Source: Escherichia coli (lineage in GTDB: Bacteria > Pseudomonadota > Gammaproteobacteria > Enterobacterales > Enterobacteriaceae). From it: a stretch of DNA of 64,000 bases. The stretch is from assembly GCF_022846255.1 (NCBI RefSeq), contig NZ_AP025682.1. One strand, 5' to 3'. The notes beneath the pieces were generated by a model. The model was not told the origin of the DNA. It worked only from the letters and a program-made list of their open reading frames with translations, and did not search any database. This document shows, one piece after another, positions 13,283 through 56,971 of the stretch. The translations under genes and the position numbers were made by a program. Numbering within the stretch: the first letter of the stretch is position 1; the number at the start of each line of letters is the position of its first letter.

Positions 13283-13897
13283 TTATCCTTCGATAAAAGC
13301 CATCCCTGTGAACGTTCGTCGCGGGTTGCCACGTTCAATCTGGTGATGGAACATTCGCCGCTGCGATTTCAGCGCCGCGCTATTTTCCTGTTGCTGTTGT
13401 TCCAGCTTCCAGGCAATCAGTAATCGCGCCAGCCGCTTGTTAGCATGCTGACTGCGCTCTGACTGAACCTTCACGCTAATACCGGATGCCAGATGCGTGG
13501 CGCGTACCGCCGAGTCGGTTTTATTGACATGTTGACCGCCCGGCCCCGACGAACGCAGCGTCTCATAACGGATCGCGTCGGATTGTTCCTGCTCATCAGC
13601 GGTAAAACGCCCAATGCCCAGAAACCAGTTTTTGCGCCCATGATGAGGCCGATACGGACTCGGACAAATCCACTGGATAGTGCCACACCAGCTTTCGCTT
13701 AGAGCCCATGCGTTATCGCCATCCAGAGAAATCAGCGCCGAACGCAGTGTGTCAGAGTAGCGACCCGTTTCTGTTTCCAGCACCGTTACCGCGACGTCCT
13801 GTCGGGTAGCTTCTTTAATCAGCCTGTCCAGTGCTTTTCTCACTGCGAGACAACATTCTTCCGGCCCCTGAGCAGAGGAGAGTTGTAGCAAGATCAT
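13283..13897 (-). CDS. prfH: Peptide chain release factor homologue PrfH (RF-H), about 204 aa, apparently intact
   Basis: Class-I release-factor-like sequence with the GGQ motif ([17 protein letters not shown]); start set at [16 protein letters not shown], where the ATG overlaps the rtcB-like stop (ATGA). Confidence 0.8.
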
Positions 13898-15045
13898 CCT
13901 TTTTTCCCTCCACTGTTTTTGAGCGTCAGCACCGGGCGCAGTCGCGCGACAGGAATAATTAACCCAGCCAGCACCAGACATTGCACCACGCTTTCAGCCG
14001 ATTTATAGGCTTGTGGCGCTTCTTCAAAGATGAGTTGTTTATCGCGACAAATTACCCGACTGCCAAGTTCAGTCCGCGAGAGTTGCGTCGCCGTGTATTT
14101 CGCTGCCAGACGCCCTTTACACTCGGTGCGCCCCCATTTACGCCCCGCCCCATGCGCCAGCGAGTGGAGCGTTTTTTCGTTCGCAACAGGTTTAACCAGC
14201 CAGGAGTAATCGCCGCGTGAACCGGGAATAATCACCAGACCGTTGTCATCCGGCGTGGCGCCTTTACGATGCAACCAGCCCTGTTGATCGCCGATTTGGC
14301 ACGCGCTAACAAAGTTATGCGCCACATCCAGAACCGGACTTCCGGTGGCCTTAACTTGTTGCATTATGCGCAAAGCGATCAGCTGGCGATTAATACGCGC
14401 AAACGCCAGCGCATCGTCATGTTCCGCAATATACCGTAGCGCGTCGTCACTGCCTTCAGGCAAACCATGATGCGAAAACGAGGCAATATGCCGCTGTAAA
14501 ATAGACTGCCCCAATCCCCTCGAGCCGCTATGAACCAGCAGTTGCAGATGCTGCGCATCCAGACCAGCCAGTGCAAACAGTTCCGCGTCGATAATTTGAT
14601 CAATCTGTTGCAGTTCTGCGAAGTGGTTACCGCCACCGATGGAGCCAAGCGAGTTGTGCCACGGATGCTGTGCAAATGCTGACGGCAGGTTTTCCTCCAG
14701 CCAGCTTTCTTCAGCAACGTCATCCAGATCTGATAATCGCTTTTCAAACTTATCGGCGTTGTATTTGCGAGCGAGAATATCTGTTTGCCATAGCGCCATG
14801 CCGCAGCCGATATCATTGCCGACCAGTGCCGGGTAAAAACGGCCTACGGAGAAGAACGCTGCGCCAATCGGGTAGCCGCGTCCGGGATGTAAATCTGGCA
14901 TCCCCACAACGCGCTGCATGTTGGGTAAATTTGCCGTGGTGTGTAATTGTTGGATCGCTAAACTCTCGATCCACAGGTCATCAGATGCGATGGTAAATAC
15001 CGCATCGGATAAGGGACGAATATATTTGCCCATGTACCATTCCAT
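13894..15045 (-). CDS. RtcB-family RNA ligase paralogue coupled to prfH (ykfJ region in K-12), 383 aa
   Basis: RtcB-like His/Cys-rich motifs ([22 protein letters not shown]); translationally coupled to prfH. Confidence 0.8.
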
Positions 15046-23678: not shown

Positions 23679-23710
23679 TGATGACTCCGGATAACGATGT
23701 CAGGTTATTG

Positions 23711-23725
23711 GCAAAAGGCGTGCCA
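23711..23725 (-). promoter_or_regulatory. Sigma54 (-24/-12) promoter motif upstream of lafB
   Basis: Minus strand reads TGGCACgccttTTGC, a perfect match to TGGCAC-N5-TTGC; predicted start site about 20 nt upstream of the lafB ATG, which has a GGAG Shine-Dalgarno. Confidence 0.6.
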
Positions 23726-25232: not shown

Positions 25233-26126
25233 ATGCAAAGCACTATCAGGAAACATTTATCCCTTGCTAAGGTAAACTCAACTATGAGTATTATTATCAA
25301 CAACTGGCGGATGGACCCGTCGCTTAATGCCTTAATACATTGCGAAACGGGTGAAACACGTCGTCTCGGCGAATACCATTTTATTTTGCTGGAAACATTA
25401 GCAAAAAATGCCGATGTGGTTTTATCGCGATCTTATTTATGTGCCGAAGTATGGAAGAACCGCATTGTCGGCGGTAACAGCCTGCCGACGGCGATCCACG
25501 CTCTGCGCGTTGCCATTGATGATGACGGCAAGCAACAGAACATTATTAAAACCATCCCGAAAAAAGGGTACCTGTGCAATAAAGAGTATGTGTCTTTGCC
25601 GGAGTCATCGCCTGCAGAAGCGCTGATTATTACCGACCAGATACAAGATACAGCCCCAGAAGAGATATCTTCGACAACACCGCCTGTACCTGTTAGAAAA
25701 AAACATAAAGGACTGATGGGGTTAGCGTTGGCCGCAGCTGTTATATTTATTGGCTCGACCGTGGGGTATTCACACTTGAAAAGTACACCTGACGCCCCGC
25801 AACTGGTAAAAGAGTCAATTAACAGTCCAAGAATAAAAATATTTCATTTAACTTCTGCTGGAGAAAATAATTCCGTACCGTTACTATCACAAACCCTCGC
25901 ACCAGGAAAAGACAAACTCGATAATTTATTGTCAGCGCATAATATGACAATGACAACCTATTATAAATATGTTCGTAACCGACTGGAGAGTGATATTGTT
26001 CTGCGCAACCAGTGCAATGGTAGCTGGCAATTAACCTTTAATGTGGAAGGTTGGCAGAACAGCGATATTAATAGCGCGATGTATCAGAATTTAGAGAAGT
26101 TGTTAAATACTGTGCAGAAATGCTGA
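25233..26126 (+). CDS. lafZ: LafZ, membrane-anchored ToxR/CadC-like winged-helix transcriptional regulator (alternative start at 25284)
   Basis: N-terminal OmpR/PhoB-type winged-helix region (about aa 20-110), single TM (LMGLALAAAVIFIGSTVGY), C-terminal presumably periplasmic domain; divergent from lafA. Confidence 0.65.
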   Translation: MQSTIRKHLSLAKVNSTMSIIINNWRMDPSLNALIHCETGETRRLGEYHFILLETLAKNADVVLSRSYLCAEVWKNRIVGGNSLPTAIHALRVAIDDDGKQQNIIKTIPKKGYLCNKEYVSLPESSPAEALIITDQIQDTAPEEISSTTPPVPVRKKHKGLMGLALAAAVIFIGSTVGYSHLKSTPDAPQLVKESINSPRIKIFHLTSAGENNSVPLLSQTLAPGKDKLDNLLSAHNMTMTTYYKYVRNRLESDIVLRNQCNGSWQLTFNVEGWQNSDINSAMYQNLEKLLNTVQKC

Positions 26127-26141
26127 TGAGTGCCAATATAT

Positions 26142-26178
26142 GCCGGATGCGACGCTAAACGCGTCTTATCCGGCCTAC
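26142..26178. repeat. REP element between lafZ and lafW
   Basis: GCCGGATGCGACGCTAAACGCGTCTTATCCGGCCTAC. Confidence 0.55.
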
Positions 26179-26184
26179 CGATAA

Positions 26185-27162
26185 TTACCCCAATAAATTC
26201 CTCACCGTCTGGCTGGAAATTCGCGCCTGACCGTTCACAGCCTGCAATAAAACCTGATAGTTATGATTGGCGCTATCAAGCACACCGCCGAGATTTTCCG
26301 ATGCCTGCACCGCGTTTTCCGTTTGCGGGAAGCGCGACATGCCGTCGATCAGCTGCCGCGCTTTTTCCTGCTGCACCGCCATCTTCGCGCGCTGCTGATT
26401 AATGTTTTCTAACGTCTGAGAAATCCCCGCCCCACCCTGTTGCAGGCTTTGCGCTAAGCGGTCCGCCTGTGACGGTTCGGCAAAGGTTTTTAGCGGCATA
26501 AACGCTGATTTATCACCATCGGTACGCACGCTTAAGGTTCGTTCGATATGGGGCCACTGTTTTTCAGTGGTGGAGAAGCTGATGCCATCGGCGTGTTGAT
26601 GCATCTGAACGCCCACGCGGCGCAGAGCGTTGGTCAGCCGCGTCTGATACTGCGCGGCGCTGTCATCCTCAGACAGCATCACCGCCGAAAGCTGAGTCTG
26701 CCGCCCGTCAGAGACGCTGAACATGCGCGTTCCCGGCGTGGGATTGTGTACCAGATTCGTCAGATCCGGCGAGTGAAAAGTCACCCGCGCTTCCCCCTGC
26801 AACACTGGCTGCAACTGGCGGTCCACCGCGCCGCCGGAAAGCGCGGTGCGTTTGTCCAGCATCTGCATCAGCGCTGAACTCTGCGCCTGCCCGCCCTTAC
26901 GCTGGCTGTGACGGTAATCGAGCAACTGCTGTTCCAGTTGCCCGAGATAGTGATCCGCCTGCTGCAACGTGGTGAGCTGATCGTTAAGCTGCACACTGTA
27001 ACGCTGCGGGCGAGTGGTAATCAGCGGCGAGGCCGGATATTCACTCGCCGTCGCCGGGAGTTTTTGCCGCACCGCCTGAGTGGGCGCAACGGTTGACGAC
27101 GATACCGCAGCGCTATGCGCGCCGCCGGTGGCGAGTGATGAAGATGTAAGTCCGACCTGCAT
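26185..27162 (-). CDS. lafW: LafW, lateral-flagellar-cluster protein of unknown function, 325 aa
   Basis: ORF directly downstream of lfgL; no domain recognisable by eye; name assigned by position in the Flag-2/lateral flagellar gene order. Confidence 0.5.
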   Translation of the reverse strand: MQVGLTSSSLATGGAHSAAVSSSTVAPTQAVRQKLPATASEYPASPLITTRPQRYSVQLNDQLTTLQQADHYLGQLEQQLLDYRHSQRKGGQAQSSALMQMLDKRTALSGGAVDRQLQPVLQGEARVTFHSPDLTNLVHNPTPGTRMFSVSDGRQTQLSAVMLSEDDSAAQYQTRLTNALRRVGVQMHQHADGISFSTTEKQWPHIERTLSVRTDGDKSAFMPLKTFAEPSQADRLAQSLQQGGAGISQTLENINQQRAKMAVQQEKARQLIDGMSRFPQTENAVQASENLGGVLDSANHNYQVLLQAVNGQARISSQTVRNLLG

Positions 27163-28122: not shown

Positions 28123-29499
28123 TTAGCTGCACATTTCCAGCACCGAATCGAAAATCTCGGCCCCGGCGGAAATGACTTTCAGATTGGCTTCATAAATTTG
28201 TTGATAGGTGATCAGGTTCACCGCCTCTTCGTCCATGCTGACGCCGCTGACGCTACTCTGCTGGTTTTGCGCTTCGGAATAGACATTGGACGCGGCATCG
28301 ACTTCCGTCTGGTTTTGCTGACTGTAAATGCCGATATTGCTGATGATTGACGAGCACGCCTGCCCGACCGTCACACTGCCGAGGTTGGCTATCTCCAGCG
28401 GTTCGGTGGAGATATTGATCAGCGCCTGCAGGTTGTCGCTGTTGCCGCTTTCGTCCGGTGAACTGGAAAACGCCAGCTCATCGGCAGTGATATCCGGGTT
28501 AACGGTCAGTGGGCCGTCGGCATTGCTGGCATCGTAAATAAACAGTGGCTCGCCGGGGTTACCGTTGAGATCGTAGCCCTGCGCCAGCTGGTTGTTGACC
28601 GCATCGGCGAACTGCGACGCCATGCTGTTGATGGTGTCGGTCAGCGGCGTCAGCACATCGTTTTGATAATCAAACAGTGCGCCTAATGAACCGCCAGTGT
28701 CGGTGGTCATCGTCGAGATGGTTCCGGCGAAGGTCAGCGTCATACTTGCTGTACCATCGGCGTTGGTTTCCAGCGCGATGGTCGAGCTTTGCTGCCCGCT
28801 CACCAGCGGCTGACCGTTTTTCAGGGTGACGTTGTAGTTGCCCTGGTCGTCAACATTGACCTGCACGTCCATCATTCCGCTCAGTTCTTCCACCATCTGA
28901 TCGCGGGCGTCGTACAGCGCGGAGGCGTTATCGCCGTTGGCTTCGGCCTGAGCGATTTGCTGGTTATAGCTGGCGATGCCGCTGGTCAGCGTATTGATTT
29001 GCGATACCATCGCCTGCTGCTGACTGATGATTTCCGTGCTTTGCGAGTCGATGTAATCCAGCGTGTTGTCGATGCGCAAGGACAGCGCCCCGGCTTCGCT
29101 GATCACCTGCTCGCGCAGGGCGGAATCATCGGGGCTGGTGGTCGCTTCGTTAAGGGCAGCGAAAAAGTTATCGAAGCCGCCGCTCAGACTGCTGTTATCG
29201 TCGCTCAGTACCGCTTCCAGTTGTGTGAGATACCCTTGTTGGGTGCTGTAATAGCCGTAATCGCTGGCGGCATACCATACCTGATTAACCTGATACTGGT
29301 TGGAGACGCGGCGAATACTGTCGACCTGCACGCCGTTACCGGCGCTGTTCGGCGAACCACCGCTGGCACCGATGGTGCTGATCTCCGCCACCTGGCGGGT
29401 GTAGCCCGTGGTCATGGCGTTAGCGGTGTTTTGCGCCGTGACGTTCAGCTCCACCTGCGCGGTTGATGCGCCGCTGTAGCCGATGTTAATCATGTCCAT
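28123..29499 (-). CDS. lfgK: Hook-associated protein 1 LfgK (FlgK-like), 458 aa
   Basis: FlgK-like N-terminus (NAMTTGYTRQ) and conserved C-terminal helix. Confidence 0.85.
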   Translation of the reverse strand: MDMINIGYSGASTAQVELNVTAQNTANAMTTGYTRQVAEISTIGASGGSPNSAGNGVQVDSIRRVSNQYQVNQVWYAASDYGYYSTQQGYLTQLEAVLSDDNSSLSGGFDNFFAALNEATTSPDDSALREQVISEAGALSLRIDNTLDYIDSQSTEIISQQQAMVSQINTLTSGIASYNQQIAQAEANGDNASALYDARDQMVEELSGMMDVQVNVDDQGNYNVTLKNGQPLVSGQQSSTIALETNADGTASMTLTFAGTISTMTTDTGGSLGALFDYQNDVLTPLTDTINSMASQFADAVNNQLAQGYDLNGNPGEPLFIYDASNADGPLTVNPDITADELAFSSSPDESGNSDNLQALINISTEPLEIANLGSVTVGQACSSIISNIGIYSQQNQTEVDAASNVYSEAQNQQSSVSGVSMDEEAVNLITYQQIYEANLKVISAGAEIFDSVLEMCS

Positions 29500-29571
29500 G
29501 TTGGGTCCTTACCGGTAAATCGTGCCGGTTAAAAGCGGCGTGAAGTTGGGGATTCTTAAGTGGATAATGGT

Positions 29572-29705
29572 GCGCGCTGATGCCCTCACCCCGGCCCTCT
29601 CCCACAGGGAGAGGGCGAAAACCTGCGCCATATTCACCTCCGCGCTCAATCGGTCCCCTCGCCCCTTTGGGGAGAGGGTTAGGGTGAGGGGCAAAGCGCG
29701 CCCCT
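29572..29705. repeat. ~130-bp compound palindromic intergenic repeat, copy A (two hairpin units), between lfgK and lfgJ
   Basis: CCCTCACCCCGGCCCTCTCCCacaGGGAGAGGGC ... TCCCCTCGCCCCTTTGGGGAGAGGGTTAGGGTGAGGGG; near-exact reverse complement of copy B at 38862..38993. Confidence 0.6.
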
Positions 29706-30004
29706 CATTTCCCCTTCGGCGACAACTGCTTCACAATCATCGCCGCAATCCCAATCCCGTGCTGCTGCGCCAGGGTGTTACACAACTCATCGTCATAAAA
29801 CCCCTGCATCATGCGCACCGAATCGCTGTTAAATGGGTTATCTTTCGAATCGAACAACTCGTTGGTTTTACGCATCTCTTTCAGCATGTTGCGTAAAAAA
29901 ATCGCCTCAAACTGTTCCGCGGCCTGCCTGATATCATTGGCCTGAACCTTCGGCCCCATTAACGCATCGCTGCCGTCAATCCCGCCGCTGCCGTTGATTT
30001 TCAT
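29705..30004 (-). CDS. lfgJ: Rod-binding protein LfgJ (FlgJ N-terminal-domain-like), 99 aa, no muramidase domain
   Basis: Short ORF in the flgJ position between flgI-like and flgK-like genes. Confidence 0.7.
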   Translation of the reverse strand: MKINGSGGIDGSDALMGPKVQANDIRQAAEQFEAIFLRNMLKEMRKTNELFDSKDNPFNSDSVRMMQGFYDDELCNTLAQQHGIGIAAMIVKQLSPKGK

Positions 30005-31119
30005 CAGATCACCTCCAGGTCGGCATCCAGCGCGCCCGCCTCATGCAGCGCCTGCAAAATCGACATAATGTCATCCGGCGTCGCGCCTAAACTGTTCAAC
30101 GCATTAACCAACGTTTTCAGGCTGCTCGACTCCGGCAAACTCACCACGCCCGGACGGGCATGATTCACCGCGATATTGCTCTGTGGCGTTACTGCCGTAC
30201 GCCCGCCCGCAAAGGCATTCGGTTGGCTGACGTTGCTGGTTTCGTTAATTGAGACAGTCAGGCTGCCATGCGACACCGCCGCCGCGTGCAGCGCGATGCC
30301 ATCGCCCATCACCACCGTACCGGTACGCGAGTTAAACACCACGCGGGCGCGGATTTTCTCCGCCTGCACCTGCACATCATCCAGTTGCGACATAAACGCC
30401 ACCCGCGCGCCGGGGCTGGTGGGCGCACGCACAGTGACGTTGGTGGAACTCTGCGCCGTGGCAATGCCGCCAAACGAGGCGTTGATCGCCGCCGCAATGT
30501 TGTTGGCGTCTTTAAACGACGGGCGTTTCAGGTTGAGCGTGATGGTGTCGCCCATCTGAAAATCGCTGGGGATCTCGCGCTCCACCGTCGCGCCGTTGGG
30601 AATTAACCCGGCGGTTGGCGTATTAACCGTTACGCTCGAACCGCTGGCCCCGGTGGCATTCATCCCGCCCACCACCACGCTGCCCTGCGCCAGCGCATAA
30701 ACTTCGCCATCCGCGCCGTGCAACTGGGTCAGCAACAAAGTGCCGCCACGAATACTTTTGGCATCGCCAATCGACGAAACGGTGACATCAATGGTCTGCC
30801 CGCGCGAGTACATCGGCGGCAGCGTGGCGCTCACCGCCACCGCGGCGACGTTTTTCACCTTCGGGTCGATTTTATTCGGCAGTTGCACGCCAAACTGGCG
30901 CAGCATATTGGTGATGGTCTGGTTGGTGAATTTGACCTGGTTTTTATCGCCCGTGCCGTCGAGGCCGACCACCAGGCTGTAGCCGACCAGTTGGTTTTCA
31001 CGCACGCCCTGTACGTTGACCAGCGATTCCAGCGATTGCGCCAGCGCCACGCCAGGTAGCGCCAGGCTCACGGTGATTACTGCGGCCTTTATCCAGTTTT
31101 GCATTGCACTCTCCGGCAT
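30004..31119 (-). CDS. lfgI: P-ring protein LfgI (FlgI-like), 371 aa
   Basis: Signal peptide followed by FlgI-like sequence (...[13 protein letters not shown]...). Confidence 0.9.
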
Positions 31120-31784
31120 TAAATCGGGAACAGAGGATGGTTAAACAGTCGCGTCAACCAGCCTGCGGCGTTGGCGTCGCTTAACGCGCCGCGTCCGGCA
31201 TAGGAGATGCGGGCATCGGCGATCCGCTGCGAGGAAACCGAGTTGTCGTTCTGGATGTCGTCGGCGCGCACCAGGCCGCTTAAGCGGATGTACTCATCGC
31301 CCTGGTTGAGGGTCAGCCATTTTTCGCCGCGAATTTCCAGGATGCCGTTAGGCTGCACCGCATGGACGGAAACGGTGATCTCCCCGCGCAGGCTGTTCTG
31401 CTGCTGGGAAGTGGCGCTGCCGTCAAAGTCGCGGTTGGCATCAATGGAGCCGGAAAGCTTATCTTTGGTGTGTCCAAAAATGGTCGGCGCGCCGATATCG
31501 ACGGTGTTGCTTTTGCCGAAGTTGGTTTTCGCCTGTTTGCTCGACTGGGTGGATTCTTCGAGGATCACCGTCAGGATATCGCCCACGCGGTAAGCCCGCC
31601 GGTCGGCAGTTAGCGACCAGTTGTAGCCGGTTTCAAACACGCCCCCGGCACGCCCGTCTGCCGGAGGCGGCGCTTCGGTGGTTGGTGGCGCAAAGTATGC
31701 GTCGTCTTTTTTGACCAGAATGGCCTGCGATTCACACCCGCTAAGCAGGGGAAGCAGCGCCACCAGCCAGAGATAATTTTTCAC
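31119..31784 (-). CDS. lfgH: L-ring lipoprotein LfgH (FlgH-like), about 221 aa
   Basis: GTG start chosen at [17 protein letters not shown] (lipobox LLSGC); the ORF-track N-terminal extension runs into a REP element. Confidence 0.85.
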
Positions 31785-31818
31785 GTTCTGCCTGTTTAAA
31801 TACAGTGAGTTATGTGCT

Positions 31819-31860
31819 CTTGTAGGTCGGATAAGACGCCTCAGCGTCGCATCCGACATT
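31819..31860. repeat. REP element between lfgG and lfgH
   Basis: GTAGGTCGGATAAGACGCCTCAGCGTCGCATCCGACAT. Confidence 0.55.
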
Positions 31861-31865
31861 TCGCC

Positions 31866-32651
31866 TTACAGCGTCTGGCTGATGTACTGCAACATATCGT
31901 CCGCTGCTGACACCATTTTGGCGTTCATCTCGTACGCGCGTTGCACCGTAATCATCGCCACCATTTCGTTGACGATATCCACGTTCGAGCCTTCGAGCGC
32001 GTTGTCCTGCAAGGTGCCAAGCCCATCTTCGCCCGGCACGCCTTCGGTCGGCTGACCGCTGGCGGCGGTTTCCAGATAGAGGTTGTCGCCCTCGGCGGAA
32101 AGCCCCGCCGGGTTGGCGAAGTTCACCAGCGTCAGTTGCCCTAACTCGGTCACGTCGCTGTCGCCGGGTAAGATCGCCGTCACCGTACCGTCCTCACCAA
32201 ACGCGACGTTGGTCGCCCCCGCCGGAACGTCGATTTCCGGCTGCAACGGCAAGCCCTGCGAGTTGGTCAGTACGCCGTCAGCGTTCACCTGCAAGTTGCC
32301 GTCGCGGGTATAAGCGATATCGCCGTTGGCCTTTTGCACCTGCAAAAATCCCAGCCCCATAATGGCGACATTCATCGCGTTGTCGGTGGTTTCGACGTTG
32401 CCTTCGGTGAAGGTTTTCTGAGTGCCGACAATGCGTACGCCGCTACCGAATTGCAGCCCGGTCGGCATAATGTTGTTCTGATCGAGCATCGCGCCCGGCG
32501 CTTCCTGGGTCTGGTAAAACAGATCCTGAAACATCACCCGGTCGCGCTTAAAGCCTGTGGTGTTAACGTTGGCGATGTTGTTGGCAATCGCGCTCATTTC
32601 AGCATCCTGCGCTGAGAGGCCGGTTTTGCTGATCCATAGTGCTGCGTTCAT
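31866..32651 (-). CDS. lfgG: Distal rod protein LfgG (FlgG-like), 261 aa
   Basis: Conserved rod/hook N-terminus (ISKTGLSAQDAEMSAIANNIANVNTTGFK) and C-terminus. Confidence 0.9.
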   Translation of the reverse strand: MNAALWISKTGLSAQDAEMSAIANNIANVNTTGFKRDRVMFQDLFYQTQEAPGAMLDQNNIMPTGLQFGSGVRIVGTQKTFTEGNVETTDNAMNVAIMGLGFLQVQKANGDIAYTRDGNLQVNADGVLTNSQGLPLQPEIDVPAGATNVAFGEDGTVTAILPGDSDVTELGQLTLVNFANPAGLSAEGDNLYLETAASGQPTEGVPGEDGLGTLQDNALEGSNVDIVNEMVAMITVQRAYEMNAKMVSAADDMLQYISQTL

Positions 32652-32686
32652 GGTGGTAAATTCCGTGTTATTTTTTGGCCGCGGTT

Positions 32687-32721
<35 letters not shown>

Positions 32722-32729
32722 ATGTGCGG

Positions 32730-33467
32730 TTACGAGCCGCGCAATAAGCGGTTGCCCGCGTCGCTGATATCTTCGGCGGTTTTCATCATCTTGATCTGCG
32801 CTTCGAACTGGCGGTTCATGGCGATGGACGACATCATCTCACTCACCGCCGAGACGTTGCTGCCCTCGAGAAAACCGCCGCTGACTTTGATGTTTTCATC
32901 GCGCTGGGCCGGAACGCCGTCGGCAGTCACCAGCATCCCTTCAGGATTTTTCGCCAGGTTAGCGACCGGAATATCCACCAGCTTCAGGCGGTCGATATCC
33001 ATCGTCGCGGTCACGTCGCCGTCATCGGGCGTCACCGACAGCGTGCCGTCGCTGCCAAAAGAGGCGATGGCGTTCGGCGGCAGAATAATCGGCCCGTTAT
33101 CCCCCAGCACCAGATTGCCGTCGATGGTCAGTTGCCCCTGGTCGTCCTGCTGAATGTTGCCGTTGCGGGTATAGACTTCGTTGCCGTTTTTATCCTGCAC
33201 CGCAATGTAACCCGCGCCCTGAATCGCCACGTCCAGCGGGCGTTCGGTTTTCTCCGCCACACCCGTGCTGTCGTTCACGCCGCTGGCCCCTTCCTGCGCC
33301 ATATAGCGAGTGTCGAAGCCGCCGCCTTTCACCTTGTCATTGGTCGCCATTGCCATATCGGCGCGAAAACCGTTGGTGTTGACGTTCGCCAGGTTGTTGG
33401 CGCTAATCTGCTGCTCATACAACGTCTGAGAAGCCCCGCTCAGGGCGGTATAAATCAAGCGATCCAT
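32730..33467 (-). CDS. lfgF: Proximal rod protein LfgF (FlgF-like), 245 aa
   Basis: Rod-protein N- and C-terminal conserved segments; position between flgE-like and flgG-like genes. Confidence 0.85.
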   Translation of the reverse strand: MDRLIYTALSGASQTLYEQQISANNLANVNTNGFRADMAMATNDKVKGGGFDTRYMAQEGASGVNDSTGVAEKTERPLDVAIQGAGYIAVQDKNGNEVYTRNGNIQQDDQGQLTIDGNLVLGDNGPIILPPNAIASFGSDGTLSVTPDDGDVTATMDIDRLKLVDIPVANLAKNPEGMLVTADGVPAQRDENIKVSGGFLEGSNVSAVSEMMSSIAMNRQFEAQIKMMKTAEDISDAGNRLLRGS

Positions 33468-34669
33468 TACATTGCCTGGAACAGCGCGTCATCGAGCTGC
33501 GTGCTGGTGGCGATCACTTTGGTGTTGGCCTGATAGTTACGCTGGGCGGTCATCAGGTTAACCAGTTCGCTGGTAATATCGACGTTAGAGCTCTCAAGCG
33601 CTCCCGACGTGAGCGTGCCGCAGGTTCCGGAACCGGGAACACCAATCAGTGGCGTGCCGGATTCCCCGGTTTGTACCCACGCGGTACCGCTTACGGCTTG
33701 CAGGCCGTCGTCGTTAGGGAAAGTCGCCAGCACCACCTGGCCCTGCAACATGCGCTCGCCGTTGCTGTAGGTGGCGTAAACTTTGCCATCGTCATCGACC
33801 TGCACACCGTTCTGAGTCGCGGAGGCGTAGCCGTCGGCGGCGTTGGTGGTGACAGAAAATTCAGAACCGTATTGCGTACAGGTGGAGTAATCGACGGTCA
33901 AATCGATGGGCGCGGCGGCGTCGGTCTGAAACTCAATGGTCTGCGGCGTGGTTGGCGAAGTCAGCTTCCCGGTGTTCGGGTCGAAGGTTAACGTCGTCGC
34001 CGGAACGCCGGTCTGCTGCTGACCGTCGAAGGTGTACTGCACTTCCCAGGTGTTGTCGCTGGTTTTGGTGAAGTACTGGCATACCGAGTGTTCGTTACCT
34101 AATGAGTCGTACACCGTGGTGGTGTAGCTGTCGGTGTACGAGCTGCTGTTGGTCGCGTCGAACGGTACGGTAGTGCGGTCGATAGCGTCGTCGCTGGCAT
34201 CGAAGTTGGCGGTAAAGGTCAGGCTGCTACTGGCCTGCGCCGGAATATTGCCAGTTTTGATCTGGATATCGGTGACTGTACCGGTTTGCAGAGTGCCCGT
34301 GTCATCGACCGGATAGCCCTGCAAATAAGCGCCCGAGGCGTTGACGATATAGCCGTTTTTGTCGGTTTCAAACGATCCAGCGCGGGTATAAGAAATGTTG
34401 CCCGCGCTGTCGCAGGTAACAAAAAAACCGTCGTCGTTAATCGCCAGATCCAGCGCGTTACCAGTGGAGACCAGCGAACCGCCGCGCGAAATACTTTGCG
34501 CGGTGCCCGCCACGCTGACGCCCATCGCCTGGCTTCCGGCATACATGGCGGAAAACTGGGTGGTCATCGACTTATAGCCCACCGTTCCGGCGTTAGCGAT
34601 GTTGTTACTGATCCCGTCGAGCTGTTCGTTAACGGCATTCAGCCCCGTTGCGGCAATTTCATAACTCAT
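33467..34669 (-). CDS. lfgE: Flagellar hook protein LfgE (FlgE-like), 400 aa
   Basis: FlgE-like termini (MSYEIAATGLNAVNEQLDGISNNIANAGTVGYK ... SNVDITSELVNLMTAQRNYQAN). Confidence 0.9.
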   Translation of the reverse strand: MSYEIAATGLNAVNEQLDGISNNIANAGTVGYKSMTTQFSAMYAGSQAMGVSVAGTAQSISRGGSLVSTGNALDLAINDDGFFVTCDSAGNISYTRAGSFETDKNGYIVNASGAYLQGYPVDDTGTLQTGTVTDIQIKTGNIPAQASSSLTFTANFDASDDAIDRTTVPFDATNSSSYTDSYTTTVYDSLGNEHSVCQYFTKTSDNTWEVQYTFDGQQQTGVPATTLTFDPNTGKLTSPTTPQTIEFQTDAAAPIDLTVDYSTCTQYGSEFSVTTNAADGYASATQNGVQVDDDGKVYATYSNGERMLQGQVVLATFPNDDGLQAVSGTAWVQTGESGTPLIGVPGSGTCGTLTSGALESSNVDITSELVNLMTAQRNYQANTKVIATSTQLDDALFQAM

Positions 34670-34692
34670 TGTTTCTTCCTGTTAATTGATTC

Positions 34693-35406
34693 TTACGCCA
34701 CATCACTGTCGGCATCGGGTACGCCAAACTGGCTAATCATGGTGAACGGCACTTCACCTACACCTGCAACGTTAAGTACCGGGGAGCTGCCGTCGAGCGG
34801 GATGCGCACATCTTCCACTTCGCCGGAGACTTCAATCGGTACCTCTTCTTCCCCGGTGTTGGTCACCACCGAGACGTCGTAATCGCCCGGCGGGATGCCG
34901 TAATCCGCCGGATTAATCGAGAAATCGACCTGGCCTGGCCCAACCGACGAACTCCCTTCCGGGATCAGCGAGACGGTGTAGTCATCGCCCGCAGCATCGG
35001 TAAAGTGGAGATCGGCGGTGGTACAGGCGTCATCCAGCGTGGCGCGACCGTTAATGGTCTGATCACTCACCTGCAAGGCGGTGGTCTGCACCATAATGTC
35101 GTCGCCCACCAGATTGCCGAGCGCCATCACCTGAATGTTGCTCATCAGCACCGCGTTGGTGTTGGCCTGCACGCTCATCTCTTCCATCATCGCCACCTGC
35201 GCCATCGAAGAAAGCTGGTCGATATATTCGGTGGCGTCAGTCGGGTCGGTCGGGTCCTGGTTTTGGATCTCAGCGACAAACAGCGTCAGGAAGGTATCGA
35301 CGGGCGAGCTATCGCTGCTACTTTGCGTGTCGCTGGCCGCCACGTTGTTGCTTTCCGCCGTGGCGGTCGGCTGCGGCGATTGCGCATTCAGCGCCAGGGT
35401 ATTCAT
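34693..35406 (-). CDS. lfgD: Hook capping/scaffold protein LfgD (FlgD-like), 237 aa
   Basis: Position and FlgD-like N-terminal region. Confidence 0.8.
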   Translation of the reverse strand: MNTLALNAQSPQPTATAESNNVAASDTQSSSDSSPVDTFLTLFVAEIQNQDPTDPTDATEYIDQLSSMAQVAMMEEMSVQANTNAVLMSNIQVMALGNLVGDDIMVQTTALQVSDQTINGRATLDDACTTADLHFTDAAGDDYTVSLIPEGSSSVGPGQVDFSINPADYGIPPGDYDVSVVTNTGEEEVPIEVSGEVEDVRIPLDGSSPVLNVAGVGEVPFTMISQFGVPDADSDVA

Positions 35407-35837
35407 CAGGCTTCTCCCAGTTTCAGCAGGCTTTGCTGCATACTTTTCACGTTGTTGAGCACATCGACATTGGTTTCAAAATCGCGCGAGGCCGACATCA
35501 TGTCCGCCATCTGTTCCACCACGTTGACGTCGGGATACCAGACATCCCCGTTAGCATCGGCGAGCGGCGAATGTGGTTCATAGCGTTTCACCGCCCCGCC
35601 GGTTTGCAGCACGTCCTGCACCTGCACGCTGGCACCGTCAATGGCGTGGCGATGCGTTCCCGCCAGCAAGCTGTTGTGATACACCGCCGCAAACACCGGG
35701 CTGCGCGCTTTATACGCCTGCGCCTCGCTGCTGGCGGGCGCATTGGCATTCGCCAGGTTACTGGCAACGGTATTCAGACGCAGCGTTTGCGCCGTCATCG
35801 CCGAGCCGGAAATCTGATAGATATCAGTAAATGACAT
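35406..35837 (-). CDS. lfgC: Proximal rod protein LfgC (FlgC-like), 143 aa, uninterrupted
   Basis: FlgC-like sequence (MSFTDIYQISGSAMTAQTLRLNTVASNLANANAP...); single ORF with no frameshift. Confidence 0.9.
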   Translation of the reverse strand: MSFTDIYQISGSAMTAQTLRLNTVASNLANANAPASSEAQAYKARSPVFAAVYHNSLLAGTHRHAIDGASVQVQDVLQTGGAVKRYEPHSPLADANGDVWYPDVNVVEQMADMMSASRDFETNVDVLNNVKSMQQSLLKLGEA

Positions 35838-35839
35838 GC

Positions 35840-36175
35840 TTATTTCCCTTCAATGGCCTCTCTGATGCCGCTGATTTGCAGATTCAGAAAGGTCAGACTG
35901 CTTTGATAATCCATACTATTTTGTGAAAACCGCGCCTGTTCGCTGTTCAGTTCCACGGTGTTGCCATCTTCCGACGGCTGCATCGGCACGCGGTACTGGA
36001 CATCCACCGCCGCGTTATTTGCCCGTTGCATCTCCCTGGCAAAATCAATATCTTTAGCCTTGAAATTTGGCGTATCGACGTTCGCCAGATTCGCAGTCAG
36101 TAGCTCGGTCCTCTCAAGACGTAACTTCACTGCCTGCGGATGCACTCCCAATGCCTGTTGAAAACTGATCCCCAT
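35840..36175 (-). CDS. lfgB: Proximal rod protein LfgB (FlgB-like), about 111 aa
   Basis: Start set at MGISFQQALG with an AGGAG Shine-Dalgarno; the longer ORF-track start would lie upstream of the predicted sigma54 start site. Confidence 0.85.
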   Translation of the reverse strand: MGISFQQALGVHPQAVKLRLERTELLTANLANVDTPNFKAKDIDFAREMQRANNAAVDVQYRVPMQPSEDGNTVELNSEQARFSQNSMDYQSSLTFLNLQISGIREAIEGK

Positions 36176-36211
36176 TTCTTGCGTCACTCCTGCTTCAATC
36201 CGCATACGCTA

Positions 36212-36228
36212 AGCAATCGCCGTGCCAT
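36212..36228 (-). promoter_or_regulatory. Sigma54 (-24/-12) promoter motif for the lfgB...L operon
   Basis: Minus strand reads TGGCACggcgaTTGCT, a perfect match to TGGCAC-N5-TTGCW, about 25 nt upstream of the lfgB start. Confidence 0.65.
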
Positions 36229-36256: not shown

Positions 36257-36994
36257 ATGAGTTTTCAATTTTGCAGGCGGAAGTTTTATTTCCTCCTGGC
36301 GCTGGCCTTACCGGGCTACGCCGCCGTCCATCCCGTGCAACATAGCGCGCGGGAACAAGTCAACGCCCAGGTGCTGAATGCCGCCAGCCAGCAGATTGAA
36401 TCGCTAGCGCAGCAGCGGCAGTGGCATGACTATCGCTACACCTTTAAGGTCTACATTCCCTCGCAGATTTCGACTGCCGCGCCCTGCGCTACGGCCCCCG
36501 GCGTCACGCTGACTTCGCCTGCGGAAATCGCTCTCAACCGGATGAACTTCACCGTCAGTTGCCCGCAAAGCTGGCAGATGAACGTCGCGGTGCGCCCGGA
36601 TGTTCTGGTACCGGTGGTGATGGCAAAGTCACTGGTTGCCCGCGATACGCCGCTCACGGCAAATGATGTGGAGCTGAAGCCCTACAACGTCAGCGCCCAG
36701 CGTCGCGATGTGTTGATGGAGCTTGATGACGCGATTGGTTTCAGCAGTAAACACGCGTTGCAGCCGGGCAGGCCAATCACCAAAGAAGAACTGATATCTC
36801 CGGTGCTGGTCGAGCGCGATCAACCGGTGATGATTGTTTACCAGAGCGCGGGGATCAGCGCCTCGCTGCCCGGCGTGGCGCTGAAAAATGGTCGTAAGGG
36901 CGAGATGGTGAAAGTGCGTAACGCCAGCAGCCAGCGGGTCATCAGCGCGATGGTGGCAGAAAGCGGCGTGGTGACGACGGTAAGCGCGGAGTAA
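36257..36994 (+). CDS. lfgA: P-ring assembly chaperone LfgA (FlgA-like); ORF-track start is 36236
   Basis: Signal-peptide-like N-terminus, FlgA-like C-terminal domain; divergent from lfgB as in flgA/flgB arrangements. Confidence 0.75.
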   Translation: MSFQFCRRKFYFLLALALPGYAAVHPVQHSAREQVNAQVLNAASQQIESLAQQRQWHDYRYTFKVYIPSQISTAAPCATAPGVTLTSPAEIALNRMNFTVSCPQSWQMNVAVRPDVLVPVVMAKSLVARDTPLTANDVELKPYNVSAQRRDVLMELDDAIGFSSKHALQPGRPITKEELISPVLVERDQPVMIVYQSAGISASLPGVALKNGRKGEMVKVRNASSQRVISAMVAESGVVTTVSAE

Positions 36995-37074
36995 TTTGCG
37001 CAGGCGATTAAAGTTTTGCCGCCTGTTAACCGCTTTACTGGAGTAACCCACCTAAATACCGAGACGAGGTTGCG

Positions 37075-37353
37075 ATGAAAATCACCCCGACTATGCCAGG
37101 CAATCGCCCGACAGCCACAACGGCTGGCTCCAGCCAGCCACGCAAAAGCACGGCGACCACCACCACGACGCAGAGCGCAGACGACATTACCCAGGCGGGA
37201 TTGCAGTCTGCCCAGCAAACGCTGAACGACCAGCAAGAGAGCGATATCGACAGCGATAAAGTGGCGCAAATGCAGGCGATGCTGGCGTCCGGCAGCCTGC
37301 AAGTGGACACCGAACAGTTAGCCAGCGACATGCTGAGTTTTTTCCAGAACTAA
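37075..37353 (+). CDS. lfgM: Anti-sigma-28 factor LfgM (FlgM-like), 92 aa
   Basis: Small ORF with FlgM-like C-terminus (VDTEQLASDMLSFF) in the flgA-flgM-flgN order. Confidence 0.7.
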   Translation: MKITPTMPGNRPTATTAGSSQPRKSTATTTTTQSADDITQAGLQSAQQTLNDQQESDIDSDKVAQMQAMLASGSLQVDTEQLASDMLSFFQN

Positions 37354-37921: not shown

Positions 37922-38851
37922 ATGAGTTTTATTGAATGTTACGAACCGGAATACGTGCGCAATTTTATGACGCAATATCCCGATTCGCCTTTGTACGTCC
38001 GCAAGGTCTGGAAGAATGAGATTCGCCAGAGCCTGGCATTGACCGATATTGAAAGTTGCAAAGCGGTGCTCAACGATGCCAGGGCCTTTGATTTACAGCT
38101 CACCTACCGCCCTGTGGAAGACAATGCCGCCGAGCTATCCGCGCGCGATGCGATAGTAAACCAGGCCATTTTGAGCACCCTTACGCTCCCCGATTTAACC
38201 CCGGAGCTTTCCCTGTATGCCGTCGGGATTTTGCTCTCCCGCGCCAGTAAAATGCCGGGCAGAGACGGAGATATTCTTGCCCGCTTGACGACGCTGCCAC
38301 AGGCGCTGGGGGATCATGCACAAAAAGGCACGCTACAGGCACAGTTCGCCCAACTCCCACCCGTGCCACAACTGGCGCGCCAACTGGTGACGCTGCTCGG
38401 GAGTTTTGCGTTTGACTGGTCGATTTTGCCGGAAAGCCCGCGCAAAGCCTCGCTACCGTTGCAGGTGACTTTGCTGACGTTGCATGACGCCAACAGCGAA
38501 GCTTTGTTGCAACAGCAGCTTAAGGTGCAGTGGCAAACCACCTGGCAACAGCATTTTGCCGCCGCGCCGTGGATGATGCGCAACTGGCTGATTTACCGAG
38601 TTTATCACGACGTGATTGGGCAGGCAGACGGAGCAGATTATTGCCCGCTGGTGTGTGATTTTTATCTCATCCGCACGTTAATCAGTTTATGGACGCTGGA
38701 TGGTTCTGCGCTGCGGCAGGAGGATATTTTCGCCCTCTTTGCCATGTTTGAACGCTGGCGGACCAGTGAAAATGCGCTGTTTATTCGCCAGCAAATTCAG
38801 TCGTTATGTGCCGCAGAGCCGCTGCTGTCAGCGTTTTCGCTGCTGACGTGA
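37922..38851 (+). CDS. Hypothetical protein, about 309 aa, no recognisable domain; first gene of the putative modification module
   Basis: ATG at 37922 with a GGAAG Shine-Dalgarno; same strand as, and upstream of, the multidomain glycosyltransferase. Confidence 0.55.
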   Translation: MSFIECYEPEYVRNFMTQYPDSPLYVRKVWKNEIRQSLALTDIESCKAVLNDARAFDLQLTYRPVEDNAAELSARDAIVNQAILSTLTLPDLTPELSLYAVGILLSRASKMPGRDGDILARLTTLPQALGDHAQKGTLQAQFAQLPPVPQLARQLVTLLGSFAFDWSILPESPRKASLPLQVTLLTLHDANSEALLQQQLKVQWQTTWQQHFAAAPWMMRNWLIYRVYHDVIGQADGADYCPLVCDFYLIRTLISLWTLDGSALRQEDIFALFAMFERWRTSENALFIRQQIQSLCAAEPLLSAFSLLT

Positions 38852-38861
38852 GTCGCTCTGT

Positions 38862-38993
38862 GCGCGCTTTGCCCCTCACCCTAACCCTCTCCCCAAAGGG
38901 GCGAGGGGACCGATCGAGCACGGTGTTAAAATCGGCGCTGGTTTTCTCCCTCTCCCTGTGGGAGGGGGTCGGGGTGAGGGCATCAGCGCGCAC
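38862..38993. repeat. ~130-bp compound palindromic intergenic repeat, copy B, inverted relative to copy A
   Basis: GCCCCTCACCCTAACCCTCTCCCCAAAGGGGCGAGGGGACCGATCG...CTCCCTCTCCCTGTGGGAGGGGGTCGGGGTGAGGG; reverse complement of 29572..29705. Confidence 0.6.
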
Positions 38994-47469: not shown

Positions 47470-48456
47470 TCAGGAGAAAACTTCGATACCGTGCTTGCGC
47501 ATGGAGGCCAGTCGATAGCGCAGTGCGCGCGGGGTAATGCCTAACAGGTCGGCAATTTTGCTGCGGTTGCCCTGATATTTACGCATCAGGTCGGCGATAT
47601 ATTGATACTGCGCACTTCGTCCGGCCTGGCCTAAATCGCTGGTTTCCGCAACAGATACGGAGGGCTGAACAGGCCATTGCAGTTCACTGTGATCGGCAAC
47701 GTCTATTTCCGGCAGGCCTAAGGCATCCGGGAAAATCACGCCGTCGCGGTTTAAAATCATTCCCCGCTGAATGGCGTTCTCCAGCTGACGCACGTTGCCG
47801 GGCCAGCGGTAATTGAGCAGCGCCCGGCGGGTAGATTCTGAAAGGGTGATATTTTTCACCAGCACCGTGGAGTATTTTTTAATAAATGACTCTGCCAATG
47901 GAATAATATCGTTCAGACGTTCACGCAGCGGCGGCATGGTAATAGGAATTACCGCCAGACGATAATAGAGATCTTCACGAAAACGCCCGGCGGCAACTTC
48001 CTGTTCAAGGTTTTTATTGGTACAGGCAATCAGGCGAAAATTGAGTTTAATTTGTCGGTTGCTGCCTAATCGCTCAACCTGTTGTTCCTGCAACACGCGT
48101 AATATTTTGGCCTGAAGCGCCAGCGGCATATCGCCAATTTCATCGAGTAATAAGGTGCCGTTATTCGCCAGTTCCATTTTTCCTGGCACGCTGGCAATTG
48201 CGCCGGTAAATGCACCTTTGTCGTAGCCAAATAAGGTAGATTCCAGCATATTTTCCGGGATCGCCGCGCAGTTCACGCCGACATAGGGTGCGCTTTCATT
48301 TTCACCAAAGGCTACGGTGTGAATATATTTTGCCACGCACTCTTTGCCCGCGCCGGTTTCGCCCTGAATGAGCACCGGCACGTTAAATGCGGCGACACGC
48401 TTTGCCAGAGTAAAAGCGTTAATGCTGGAAGCGGCAGTTGCAATAAGTTCAGACAT
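47470..48456 (-). CDS. lafK: Sigma54-dependent transcriptional activator LafK, 328 aa, AAA+ domain plus C-terminal HTH, no receiver domain
   Basis: Walker A GETGAGKE, GAFTGA motif (ESTLFGYDKGAFTGA), Walker B LLLDEIGDMP, FREDLYYRL, C-terminal HTH (NRSKIADLLGITPRALRYRL); in-frame stop 25 codons upstream of the ATG. Confidence 0.85.
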   Translation of the reverse strand: MSELIATAASSINAFTLAKRVAAFNVPVLIQGETGAGKECVAKYIHTVAFGENESAPYVGVNCAAIPENMLESTLFGYDKGAFTGAIASVPGKMELANNGTLLLDEIGDMPLALQAKILRVLQEQQVERLGSNRQIKLNFRLIACTNKNLEQEVAAGRFREDLYYRLAVIPITMPPLRERLNDIIPLAESFIKKYSTVLVKNITLSESTRRALLNYRWPGNVRQLENAIQRGMILNRDGVIFPDALGLPEIDVADHSELQWPVQPSVSVAETSDLGQAGRSAQYQYIADLMRKYQGNRSKIADLLGITPRALRYRLASMRKHGIEVFS

Positions 48457-55102: not shown

Positions 55103-55127
55103 CCCCTCGCCCCTTTGGGGCGAGGGA
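55103..55127. repeat. Perfect hairpin repeat unit between convergent lfhA and yafL
   Basis: CCCCTCGCCCC-ttt-GGGGCGAGGG; related to units of the compound repeat at 29572 and 38862; no U-run, so not called a terminator. Confidence 0.4.
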
Positions 55128-55169: not shown

Positions 55170-55928
55170 CTACAAAATCGTCTCTTCCGTCAAAATCCGC
55201 CGCGCGCCTAAAAAATGATCCTGCCAGAAAGGTTCAGCTAACCGGCTTATCCGAATGGTTTCGCCGGTACGTGGTGACTCGATAAACTGACCGTCTCCCA
55301 GATACACCCCCATATGATCGGCTATCTCGCGGCTGTGAATATGGAAAAACAGCAAATCTCCCCGGCGCAGGTCGTTATTCGCCACAATCGTTGCCCGACG
55401 GTAGTGGTACATCTCATTGGCCGTGCGCGGGAGCTTAGCCTCAAGGATCTTGTTGTAGGCATAAAAAACCAACCCGCTACAGTCGAAGCCTTTATCAGGC
55501 CGCGTGCCCCCCCAGATATAAGGCTTACCTAGCTGCTGCTCCAGGCGGTGAATCGCCACTTCGGTGATGTTATGTAGATGGTCGCTGCTTAAGAAATGAT
55601 TATTCTCCACCAACGCCTGCCAGCGTCTGTCACTCGCCTTGAGCGGCGCAGGAAACCATTCTGGATGCTGTTTTATCTGCTCCCGATTATGCTGGCGCAG
55701 CGCCCTTCTGCTTTTGGCATTGCCTTCCACAATATAGCTGGCCTGCTTTTTCAGATGGGTTTGGTACTGTTTTAATAAACGCGCACGGTTTTGCATCCGC
55801 TGGCGGGCGGCGTAGCTAAAAGAGATATGTGATGTGGTGGCGCTGGCGAGTAAAGGGAGCAAAACGCATAACGAAAACACGCCTGGATGCAGAAATCTGC
55901 CGTGCAAGAACGAAGACATGAAGGACAT
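55170..55928 (-). CDS. yafL: NlpC/P60-family peptidoglycan endopeptidase YafL, 252 aa
   Basis: Signal peptide; catalytic Cys context (GFDCSGLVFYAY) and His (DHMGVYLG). Confidence 0.85.
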   Translation of the reverse strand: MSFMSSFLHGRFLHPGVFSLCVLLPLLASATTSHISFSYAARQRMQNRARLLKQYQTHLKKQASYIVEGNAKSRRALRQHNREQIKQHPEWFPAPLKASDRRWQALVENNHFLSSDHLHNITEVAIHRLEQQLGKPYIWGGTRPDKGFDCSGLVFYAYNKILEAKLPRTANEMYHYRRATIVANNDLRRGDLLFFHIHSREIADHMGVYLGDGQFIESPRTGETIRISRLAEPFWQDHFLGARRILTEETIL

Positions 55929-56230: not shown

Positions 56231-56971
56231 ATGCGTAAAATCGCATTAATTCTTGCGATGTTGTTGATCCCGTGCGTTTCGTTTGCCGGTTTGCTGGGCA
56301 GCAGTAGCTCGACCACGCCAGTGAGCAAAGAGTATAAGCAGCAGTTGATGGGATCCCCTGTCTACATCCAGATCTTCAAGGAAGAACATACGCTCGATCT
56401 CTACGTCAAAATGGGCGAGCAATATCAACTGCTCGACAGCTATAAAATCTGTAAATATTCCGGCGGCTTAGGGCCAAAACAGCGTCAGGGCGATTTCAAA
56501 AGCCCGGAAGGGTTTTATAGCGTCCAGCGTAATCAGTTAAAACCAGACAGCCGTTACTACAAAGCGATTAATATTGGATTCCCAAACGCCTATGACCGTG
56601 CGCATGGTTATGAAGGGAAATACCTGATGATTCACGGCGATTGTGTTTCCATCGGCTGCTACGCGATGACCAATCAGGGTATTGATGAGATCTTCCAGTT
56701 CGTTACTGGTGCGCTGGTGTTTGGTCAGCCGAGCGTGCAAGTGAGTATTTATCCGTTCCGCATGACCGACGCCAATATGAAGCGCCATAAATATTCCAAC
56801 TTTAAGGACTTCTGGGAGCAACTGAAGCCGGGCTACGACTACTTTGAGCAAACCCGTAAGCCACCGACCGTTTCTGTGGTCAATGGCCGTTACGTGGTCA
56901 GCAAGCCGTTAAGCCACGAAGTTGTGCAGCCACAACTGGCATCAAACTACACGCTCCCCGAGGCAAAATAA
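56231..56971 (+). CDS. yafK: L,D-transpeptidase-family protein YafK, 246 aa
   Basis: Signal peptide; YkuD-like catalytic region ([12 protein letters not shown]). Confidence 0.9.

Follow-up and report, generated by a model that had tools for sequence, protein, structure and literature searches.

LfgJ of an Escherichia Flag-2 flagellar locus is a rod-binding-only FlgJ homologue with no recognisable peptidoglycan-cutting enzyme encoded in its cluster

The 64-kb stretch of DNA analysed here (the window) contains a Flag-2 island, a secondary, lateral-type flagellar gene cluster, on an Escherichia-like chromosome, bordered by dinB-yafNOP on one side and by yafL-dpaA(yafK)-yafJ-gmhA-fadE-ivy on the other. 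All of the Flag-2 genes in the window match the lengths of their RefSeq counterparts, so the cluster looks intact. The gene under study, lfgJ (29705..30004, minus strand; ATG start), encodes a 99-aa single-domain homologue of FlgJ, predicted to be a rod-binding or rod-cap scaffold only. It is preceded by lfgI (30004..31119, minus strand), which encodes the 371-aa P-ring protein (PF02119 FlgI, E = 1e-133), and the next gene downstream is lfgK (28123..29499, minus strand), which encodes hook-filament junction protein 1 (PF22638 and PF06429). The start codon of lfgJ overlaps the stop codon of lfgI in a TGATG at 30002-30006, and the order lfgI, lfgJ, lfgK places the gene in the position of a FlgJ orthologue, after flgI and before flgK. 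Contiguous same-strand open reading frames (ORFs), their RefSeq names and an upstream promoter motif indicate that lfgJ is most likely the last gene of a predicted lfgBCDEFGHIJ operon (29705..36205, minus strand). This motif, TGGCACGGCGATTGCT, is of the sigma-54 -24/-12 type, is located upstream of lfgB at 36212..36227 (minus strand) and is the sole zero-mismatch match in the window; a one-mismatch motif is present at 23710-23725 (minus strand), upstream of the filament-cap gene. The placement of the two motifs is consistent with control by LafK, the sigma-54 activator encoded at 47470..48456.

A Pfam scan of LfgJ returned a single match, to the Rod-binding domain (PF10135), which spans residues 42-93 (29726..29881, minus strand, as computed from the residue numbers) and aligns over profile positions 1-51 of 51 with a score of 53.7 bits (cut-off 25.1; E = 3e-14), placing the protein in this family. 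The polypeptide ends 6 residues past the domain, and no Pfam match to PF01832 Glucosaminidase or to SLT was obtained in it. Against TIGR02541, the NCBIfam model for FlgJ, LfgJ scored 67.5 bits (cut-off 193) with only positions 21-90 of 294 aligned, which leaves it outside the dual-domain family, and its BLASTP match to the 313-aa FlgJ of K-12, at 36% identity, is confined to FlgJ residues 30-101. The LfgJ translation has no Sec-type signal peptide. A first-pass annotation of this region had described LfgJ as the 99-aa rod-cap part of FlgJ without a muramidase domain and had proposed a domain search; the description is borne out by Pfam, NCBIfam and BLASTP, the search having returned Rod-binding only and no complete hydrolase domain.

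RefSeq names the E. coli counterpart of LfgJ 'rod-binding protein'. The best NCBIfam matches are models 97-140 positions long that are named 'peptidoglycan hydrolase'; these models (NF009349, NF009351, NF009352 and NF009350) represent the rod-binding part only, yet they carry the enzymatic title. Automatic naming of this kind can wrongly suggest enzyme activity for single-domain proteins.

Close homologues of LfgJ, drawn from a database of 5.8 billion proteins, are 99-106 aa long in Escherichia, Citrobacter, Leclercia, Scandinavium, Dryocola and Pseudescherichia. The next more distant relatives are 46-52% identical and 103-132 aa long, and the two for which genomic context was fetched (P0108 and P0113) are both within syntenic Flag-2 clusters. 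Over 24 sequences, the conserved core reads AAEQFEAIFLRNMLKEMRK...DDxL...GIGIAxMIVKQLSP. To judge from these comparisons, lfgJ is a real, conserved gene under purifying selection, with a median pairwise dN/dS of 0.15 (95 pairs). This bears on the view that lfgJ is a remnant in decay, within a cluster that is cryptic and without function, so that its missing domain would have no functional meaning. The history of the system in E. coli lends that view some credit: Flag-2 is deleted in most E. coli, strain 042 has a frameshift, and Flag-2 flagella are undemonstrated in Escherichia (PMC6993521). Decay is nevertheless very unlikely, given the low dN/dS across genera, the constant length of 99-105 aa across Enterobacteriaceae, the intact state of all cluster genes in the window and the occurrence of the same short form in species reported motile with Flag-2 alone.

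The spacer between lfgJ and lfgK, 205 bp long in the window, is filled by a palindromic repeat element of ~136 bp (29569..29704) that abuts the lfgJ stop codon. The element has imperfect inverted arms of 35 nt that are 77% complementary, with the core CCCTCGCCCCTTTGGGGAGAGGG, and generates a spurious 61-aa ORF at 29509..29694. The same core is also found at 38885-38907, after a lysine-N-methylase gene, and at 55104-55126, between lfhA and yafL; 0 occurrences would be expected by chance. When a 901-bp query holding the repeat was compared with E. coli genomes, 5167 of 5426 were matched at a median of 5 places each, and the repeat is therefore a multi-copy intergenic element, which we take to be possibly boxC-like. 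In Tatumella and Rosenbergiella the lfgJ-lfgK spacer is ~0 bp long, and most of the other Enterobacterales have one of 63-100 bp. Spacers of 0-100 bp in relatives leave no room for a second domain, so the short lfgJ is not a recent truncation, and the comparison identifies the repeat as a lineage-specific insertion and not a remnant of a lost FlgJ domain. A muramidase remnant downstream of lfgJ was likewise ruled out, as the 205-bp spacer consists of the palindromic repeat and not of decayed coding sequence.

Searches for a wall-cutting enzyme in the locus were uniformly negative. Neither full-length K-12 FlgJ nor its C-terminal part, used as tblastn queries, located a FlgJ C-domain elsewhere in the window (best E = 0.39, at an unrelated place), and a hidden Markov model (HMM) of the FlgJ C-domain, built from K-12 FlgJ and 51 FlgJ C-termini and run with --max against all stop-to-stop frames of the 64 kb, found none either (best E = 4). 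By Pfam on the non-standard cluster genes and by HMM search, no SLT, glucosaminidase or peptidase gene was detected within the Flag-2 island. The same held for SLT and glucosaminidase ORFs at ≤10 kb of lfgI in 31 Enterobacterales loci searched by phmmer and hmmsearch, the SLT search being a phmmer run with single sequences (the SLT parts of Pseudomonas otitidis and Parazoarcus FlgJ) that distant lytic transglycosylase families would escape. The first-pass annotation had argued from the missing muramidase domain of LfgJ that rod penetration needs another enzyme; by Pfam, HMM and tblastn, the cluster encodes no recognisable peptidoglycan-cutting enzyme.

Individual genes of the cluster were also considered for this role. 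The lafW gene (26185..27162, minus strand) encodes a Flag-2-specific, flagellin-like or hook-associated-like axial protein with no Pfam or PDB sequence match. Its AlphaFold (AF2) model (predicted local distance difference test, pLDDT, 71) has a central alpha/beta domain, long helices at both termini and disorder at its N-terminus, and the top Foldseek matches to this model are flagellins, FlgL and FliD. A weak LafW homologue follows flgL in Comamonas, co-occurring there with a stand-alone glucosaminidase. LafW was rejected as a hidden hydrolase on account of both the flagellin/FlgL/FliD-like model and the coexistence of its Comamonas homologue with that enzyme; the model suggests a probable additional protein of the axis or junction, of the hook-associated type, as other authors had earlier guessed. 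The gene directly after lfgN (37922..38851, plus strand) was rejected as a substitute for the stand-alone glucosaminidase of beta-proteobacteria because, despite its same position, its homologues are named lysine-N-methylase and carry precomputed PF27117; it is read as a FliB-like lysine-N-methylase. Its product lacks a signal peptide and does not resemble the glucosaminidase of Comamonas. The other two non-standard cluster genes encode a family-2 glycosyltransferase and a cytidylyltransferase.

The sole peptidoglycan-active genes in the window are at the edge of the island. yafL (55170..55928, minus strand) is a core gene flanking the island that encodes an NlpC/P60 (C40) peptidase (PF00877), an uncharacterised member of the endopeptidase set, and yafK (56231..56971, plus strand; PF03734; RefSeq name dpaA) encodes a YkuD-family amidase that detaches Lpp from peptidoglycan. 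The first-pass annotation had placed these NlpC/P60 and YkuD-family genes beside lfhA, had remarked that both are also present in K-12 and had put them forward as candidate hydrolases. Pfam, RefSeq names and coordinates agree with the identities and the location, and their presence in K-12 is confirmed; their candidacy did not survive. If YafL and/or YafK opened the wall for Flag-2, the argument would be one of proximity, as yafL starts 98 bp past the lfhA stop (55072) and yafK is ~1.2 kb from the lfhA end. Nambu is said to have described, in 2006, peptidase-type modules fused to FlgJ in some delta-proteobacteria. Both genes, however, belong to the E. coli core, being present in 5424 of 5426 genomes versus 1250 for the lfgJ region, and K-12 retains them after deletion of Flag-2. 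In K-12, dinJ-yafQ and rayT sit between them and lfhA, and the adjacency is therefore variable. yafL is convergent with lfhA, with the hairpin at 55104-55126 between the two, and yafK is divergent from yafL; between yafL and yafK there is no sigma-54 motif, in contrast to the perfect one ahead of lfgB. The pair thus exhibits neither the co-occurrence nor the co-regulation of a Flag-2-linked enzyme. In published papers, moreover, YafK (DpaA) removes Braun's lipoprotein from peptidoglycan, a cleavage of the Lpp-peptidoglycan link and not of glycan strands or cross-links. The adjacency to lfhA reflects the place of island insertion and not linkage, and as wall-opening enzymes for Flag-2 the two are weak, poorly supported candidates whose involvement we consider highly improbable.

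Related flagellar clusters were surveyed from FlgI, with one genome per species, by examining the gene after flgI and 10 kb on each side. A Rod-binding-type ORF was next to the FlgI match in 71 of 76 such loci, and the order flgI-flgJ-flgK was the same in the loci examined gene by gene (L003, L004, L005 and L084). Every one of the 31 Enterobacterales loci with a related FlgI, which come from Escherichia, Citrobacter, Pseudocitrobacter, Phytobacter, Enterobacter, Pseudescherichia, Leminorella, Rahnella, Rosenbergiella and Tatumella, encodes a Rod-binding-only protein of 99-124 aa in the lfgJ position and has no lytic gene nearby.

A different arrangement was found in 12 beta-proteobacterial loci, from genera that include Comamonas (C. 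testosteroni), Ideonella, Aquincola, Craterilacuibacter and Methyloversatilis. Here the FlgI shares 55-60% identity with LfgI and is followed by a short, Rod-binding-only FlgJ, and ~7 kb upstream of flgI there is a stand-alone ORF of 214-270 aa, a length subject to uncertain start codons, with a match to the profile of the FlgJ C-domain (L039 3016-3828 and L044 3570-4328; also L037, L040, L041 and L045-L051). PF01832 Glucosaminidase was confirmed in both of the stand-alone ORFs that were scanned, those of Comamonas, where the gene directly follows flgN, and Craterilacuibacter. The two glucosaminidases that were translated keep the ALESGWG motif of the FlgJ type. In both, the N-terminal region is long and apparently disordered and a signal peptide is not obvious, features that suggest export by the flagellar apparatus. 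On domain content and gene position, the short FlgJ and the stand-alone enzyme together are a split FlgJ.

Fusions make up the remaining arrangements. In Pseudomonas otitidis (L042 11057-12031) and Parazoarcus communis (L043 11092-12108), whose FlgI proteins are 58-59% identical to that of the window, a FlgJ of 324-338 aa combines Rod-binding with SLT (PF01464). The 328-aa lateral FlgJ of Plesiomonas shigelloides combines Rod-binding with Glucosaminidase and is encoded in a cluster that is syntenic with the window and that reportedly functions in swarming. Of the close relatives of LfgJ, the 56 longest include 47 with Glucosaminidase and 4-5 with SLT. As syntenic relatives carry it, these data support the view that lytic activity normally accompanies this flagellar type. 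In a neighbour-joining tree of FlgI, which is rough and has no bootstrap, the hydrolase-less Enterobacterales form one clade to which the beta-proteobacterial/SLT-fusion group is sister, with Plesiomonas outside. Read most simply, this topology would mean that the lytic module was lost once, at the base of the Enterobacterales Flag-2 clade.

The taxonomic placement of the loss brings in the primary (flag-1) flagellar system. Its FlgJ glucosaminidase might open peptidoglycan for Flag-2 rods too, such that domain loss from LfgJ was tolerated. In its favour, flag-1 accompanies Flag-2 in the majority of carriers (PMC6993521), and Enterobacterales, the group to which the loss maps, as a rule have flag-1 with a dual-domain FlgJ (K-12 flgJ); Plesiomonas, which is without flag-1 (PMC7526173), keeps a dual-domain lateral FlgJ, in line with this explanation. 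We nonetheless regard this explanation as rather unlikely. Tatumella ptyseos, Budvicia and Pragia are reported to be without flag-1 and motile with Flag-2; for T. ptyseos ATCC 33301 this is stated in PMC6993521, and its Flag-2 locus encodes a short, 124-aa LfgJ with no hydrolase within 10 kb, from which it follows that the enzyme need not be the primary FlgJ. In addition, FlgJ acts within its own rod cap, and at 36% identity between LfgJ and the FlgJ N-domain its docking on the Flag-2 rod is not assured; the beta-proteobacterial relatives, for their part, use a cluster-encoded enzyme and not a borrowed one.

The reading that we favour, with a probability of roughly 0.55, is that LfgJ is a rod cap or scaffold only and that the wall is opened by enzymes encoded outside the island, likely housekeeping lytic transglycosylases and not YafL or YafK. 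In this scheme, LfgJ would be translationally coupled to lfgI and made as the last product of the sigma-54-driven lfgBCDEFGHIJ operon, and would presumably be exported by the Flag-2 type III apparatus, since it has no Sec signal peptide. In the manner of the N-terminal domain of enteric FlgJ, it would cap the growing rod and then be displaced. The enzymatic half would have been lost from the Enterobacterales Flag-2 lineage with nothing in the locus to replace it, and housekeeping lytic transglycosylases from outside the island would act at, or be recruited to, the rod tip, as with other single-domain FlgJ proteins. A more specific proposal, which we offer tentatively, is that in this lineage, having lost its dedicated wall-cutting module, LfgJ came to recruit one particular housekeeping lytic transglycosylase of the host to the rod tip. 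If true, such recruitment would be an unrecognised link of general cell-wall turnover enzymes to flagellar assembly in enterobacteria.

Several points weigh against a cap-only LfgJ served by outside enzymes. The search, which covered the 64-kb window, identified no partner enzyme, and a dedicated one could lie elsewhere in the genome. In Escherichia, flagella built by Flag-2 have yet to be demonstrated (PMC6993521). The single-domain FlgJ of Borrelia serves hook and filament assembly and not rod assembly (PMC8517470), so 'rod cap' is an extrapolation for LfgJ. Finally, given long incubation, Salmonella flgJ mutants are reported to swim (Hirano 2001, as cited in PMC8781033), and a dedicated enzyme is therefore not strictly required.

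This last observation also argues for a wall crossing with no dedicated enzyme at all, in which Flag-2 rods would use gaps arising from normal peptidoglycan growth and the enzymatic domain would be dispensable; that the mutants regain swimming has been interpreted as showing that the muramidase is not absolutely required, and the negative searches of the Flag-2 locus point the same way. All other examined branches of the flagellar family, however, keep a linked lytic module, which argues for its usefulness; the rod is reported to be wider than the peptidoglycan mesh (PMC8517470), and other single-domain systems use a specific lytic transglycosylase. Passage through pre-existing gaps consequently seems unlikely to us. 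The first-pass statement that a single-domain FlgJ implies a separate hydrolase is accordingly retained in part: because no peptidoglycan-cutting enzyme is recognisable in the cluster, the enzyme would, if lysis is needed, come from elsewhere, but 'implies' is too strong in light of the Salmonella mutants.

Compared with 5426 complete E. coli genomes, the window had no identical copy; the top DNA identity was ~95-97%, core flanking genes included, so its source is probably a divergent Escherichia lineage. The FlgI of the window shares 99% identity with its counterparts in Escherichia whittamii, Escherichia sp. E1V33 and Pseudocitrobacter vendiensis (loci L006, L007, L009 and L027), an identity that hints at Flag-2 exchange between genera. 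In the island of E. coli E700025 (L001), a cytosine methyltransferase and a type II restriction endonuclease separate lfgA from lfgM, and lafZ is separated from lafW by a RelE/ParE toxin-antitoxin pair; the window is without these at the corresponding places (36994-37075 and 26126-26185, respectively), so cargo varies among otherwise similar Flag-2 islands. In the window, prfH (RF-1 domain) and an RtcB-family ligase gene, at 13283-13981 and 13894-15045 (both minus strand), appear intact; their counterparts are pseudogenes in K-12 (ykfJ, prfH) and in E. coli E700025. The ivy gene, for an inhibitor of C-type lysozyme, is 6 kb away from the island, at 61130-61603 (minus strand). An intact DDE transposase that has the DDE_Tnp_1-associated domain is encoded at 62568-63704 (minus strand), at the right end of the window, and in E. 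coli NY1601 an ISAs1-family transposase is annotated near the matching place.

What this analysis adds is the side-by-side view of four arrangements within one flagellar family. FlgJ is unmentioned in the two De Maayer 2020 comparative papers, and the flag-2 one is also silent on muramidase, peptidoglycan and hydrolase. The Flag-2 family offers a convenient system in which to ask how a rod passes through peptidoglycan without a dedicated enzyme and which housekeeping enzymes substitute. The biological stakes are modest, as Flag-2 function in Escherichia itself is undemonstrated.

Set against known systems, LfgJ departs from the dual-domain FlgJ of Salmonella and of E. coli flag-1 (TIGR02541; Rod-binding plus GH73 glucosaminidase), whose N-terminal part is homologous to it and whose gene is in the same place after flgI, in having no equivalents of FlgJ residues 102-313, the catalytic domain included. 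The lateral cluster of P. shigelloides is like that of the window, with fliHIJ, flgNMA, flgB-I, flgJ, flgKL and flagellin genes and a FlgI that is 63% identical; its LfgJ, which is said to resemble V. parahaemolyticus LfgJ VPA0272 (PMC4481668), continues into Glucosaminidase, whereas the LfgJ of the window stops after Rod-binding. With the FlgJ proteins of P. otitidis and Parazoarcus, LfgJ shares the Rod-binding N-terminus and lacks the C-terminal SLT. The beta-proteobacterial clusters resemble the window in their short FlgJ after FlgI and in a LafW-like gene after flgL, and differ in their stand-alone glucosaminidase, which in Comamonas is found after flgN, where the window has the lysine-N-methylase gene after lfgN.

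LfgJ also resembles systems in which a single-domain FlgJ works with a separate lytic transglycosylase, such as SltF of R. sphaeroides (PMC7277832), BB0259/LTaseBb of B. burgdorferi (PMC8517470) and PleA of Caulobacter. There, as for LfgJ, FlgJ is without an enzymatic domain, flgJ adjoins flgI and flgK, and lysis is left to another protein. The likeness to the SltF type extends to the FlgJ and not to the enzyme gene, since in R. sphaeroides the lytic enzyme is encoded inside the flagellar flgG operon and no lytic gene was found in the Flag-2 locus. The usual account assigns the single-domain form of FlgJ to alpha-, delta- and epsilon-proteobacteria and spirochetes, and the dual-domain form to beta- and gamma-proteobacteria (PMC8517470), so that Flag-2 LfgJ, a single-domain FlgJ with no linked enzyme, is a clear gamma-proteobacterial exception. 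In its architecture, the hydrolase-less LfgJ fits the well-described single-domain FlgJ pattern and is a real but fairly ordinary instance of it.

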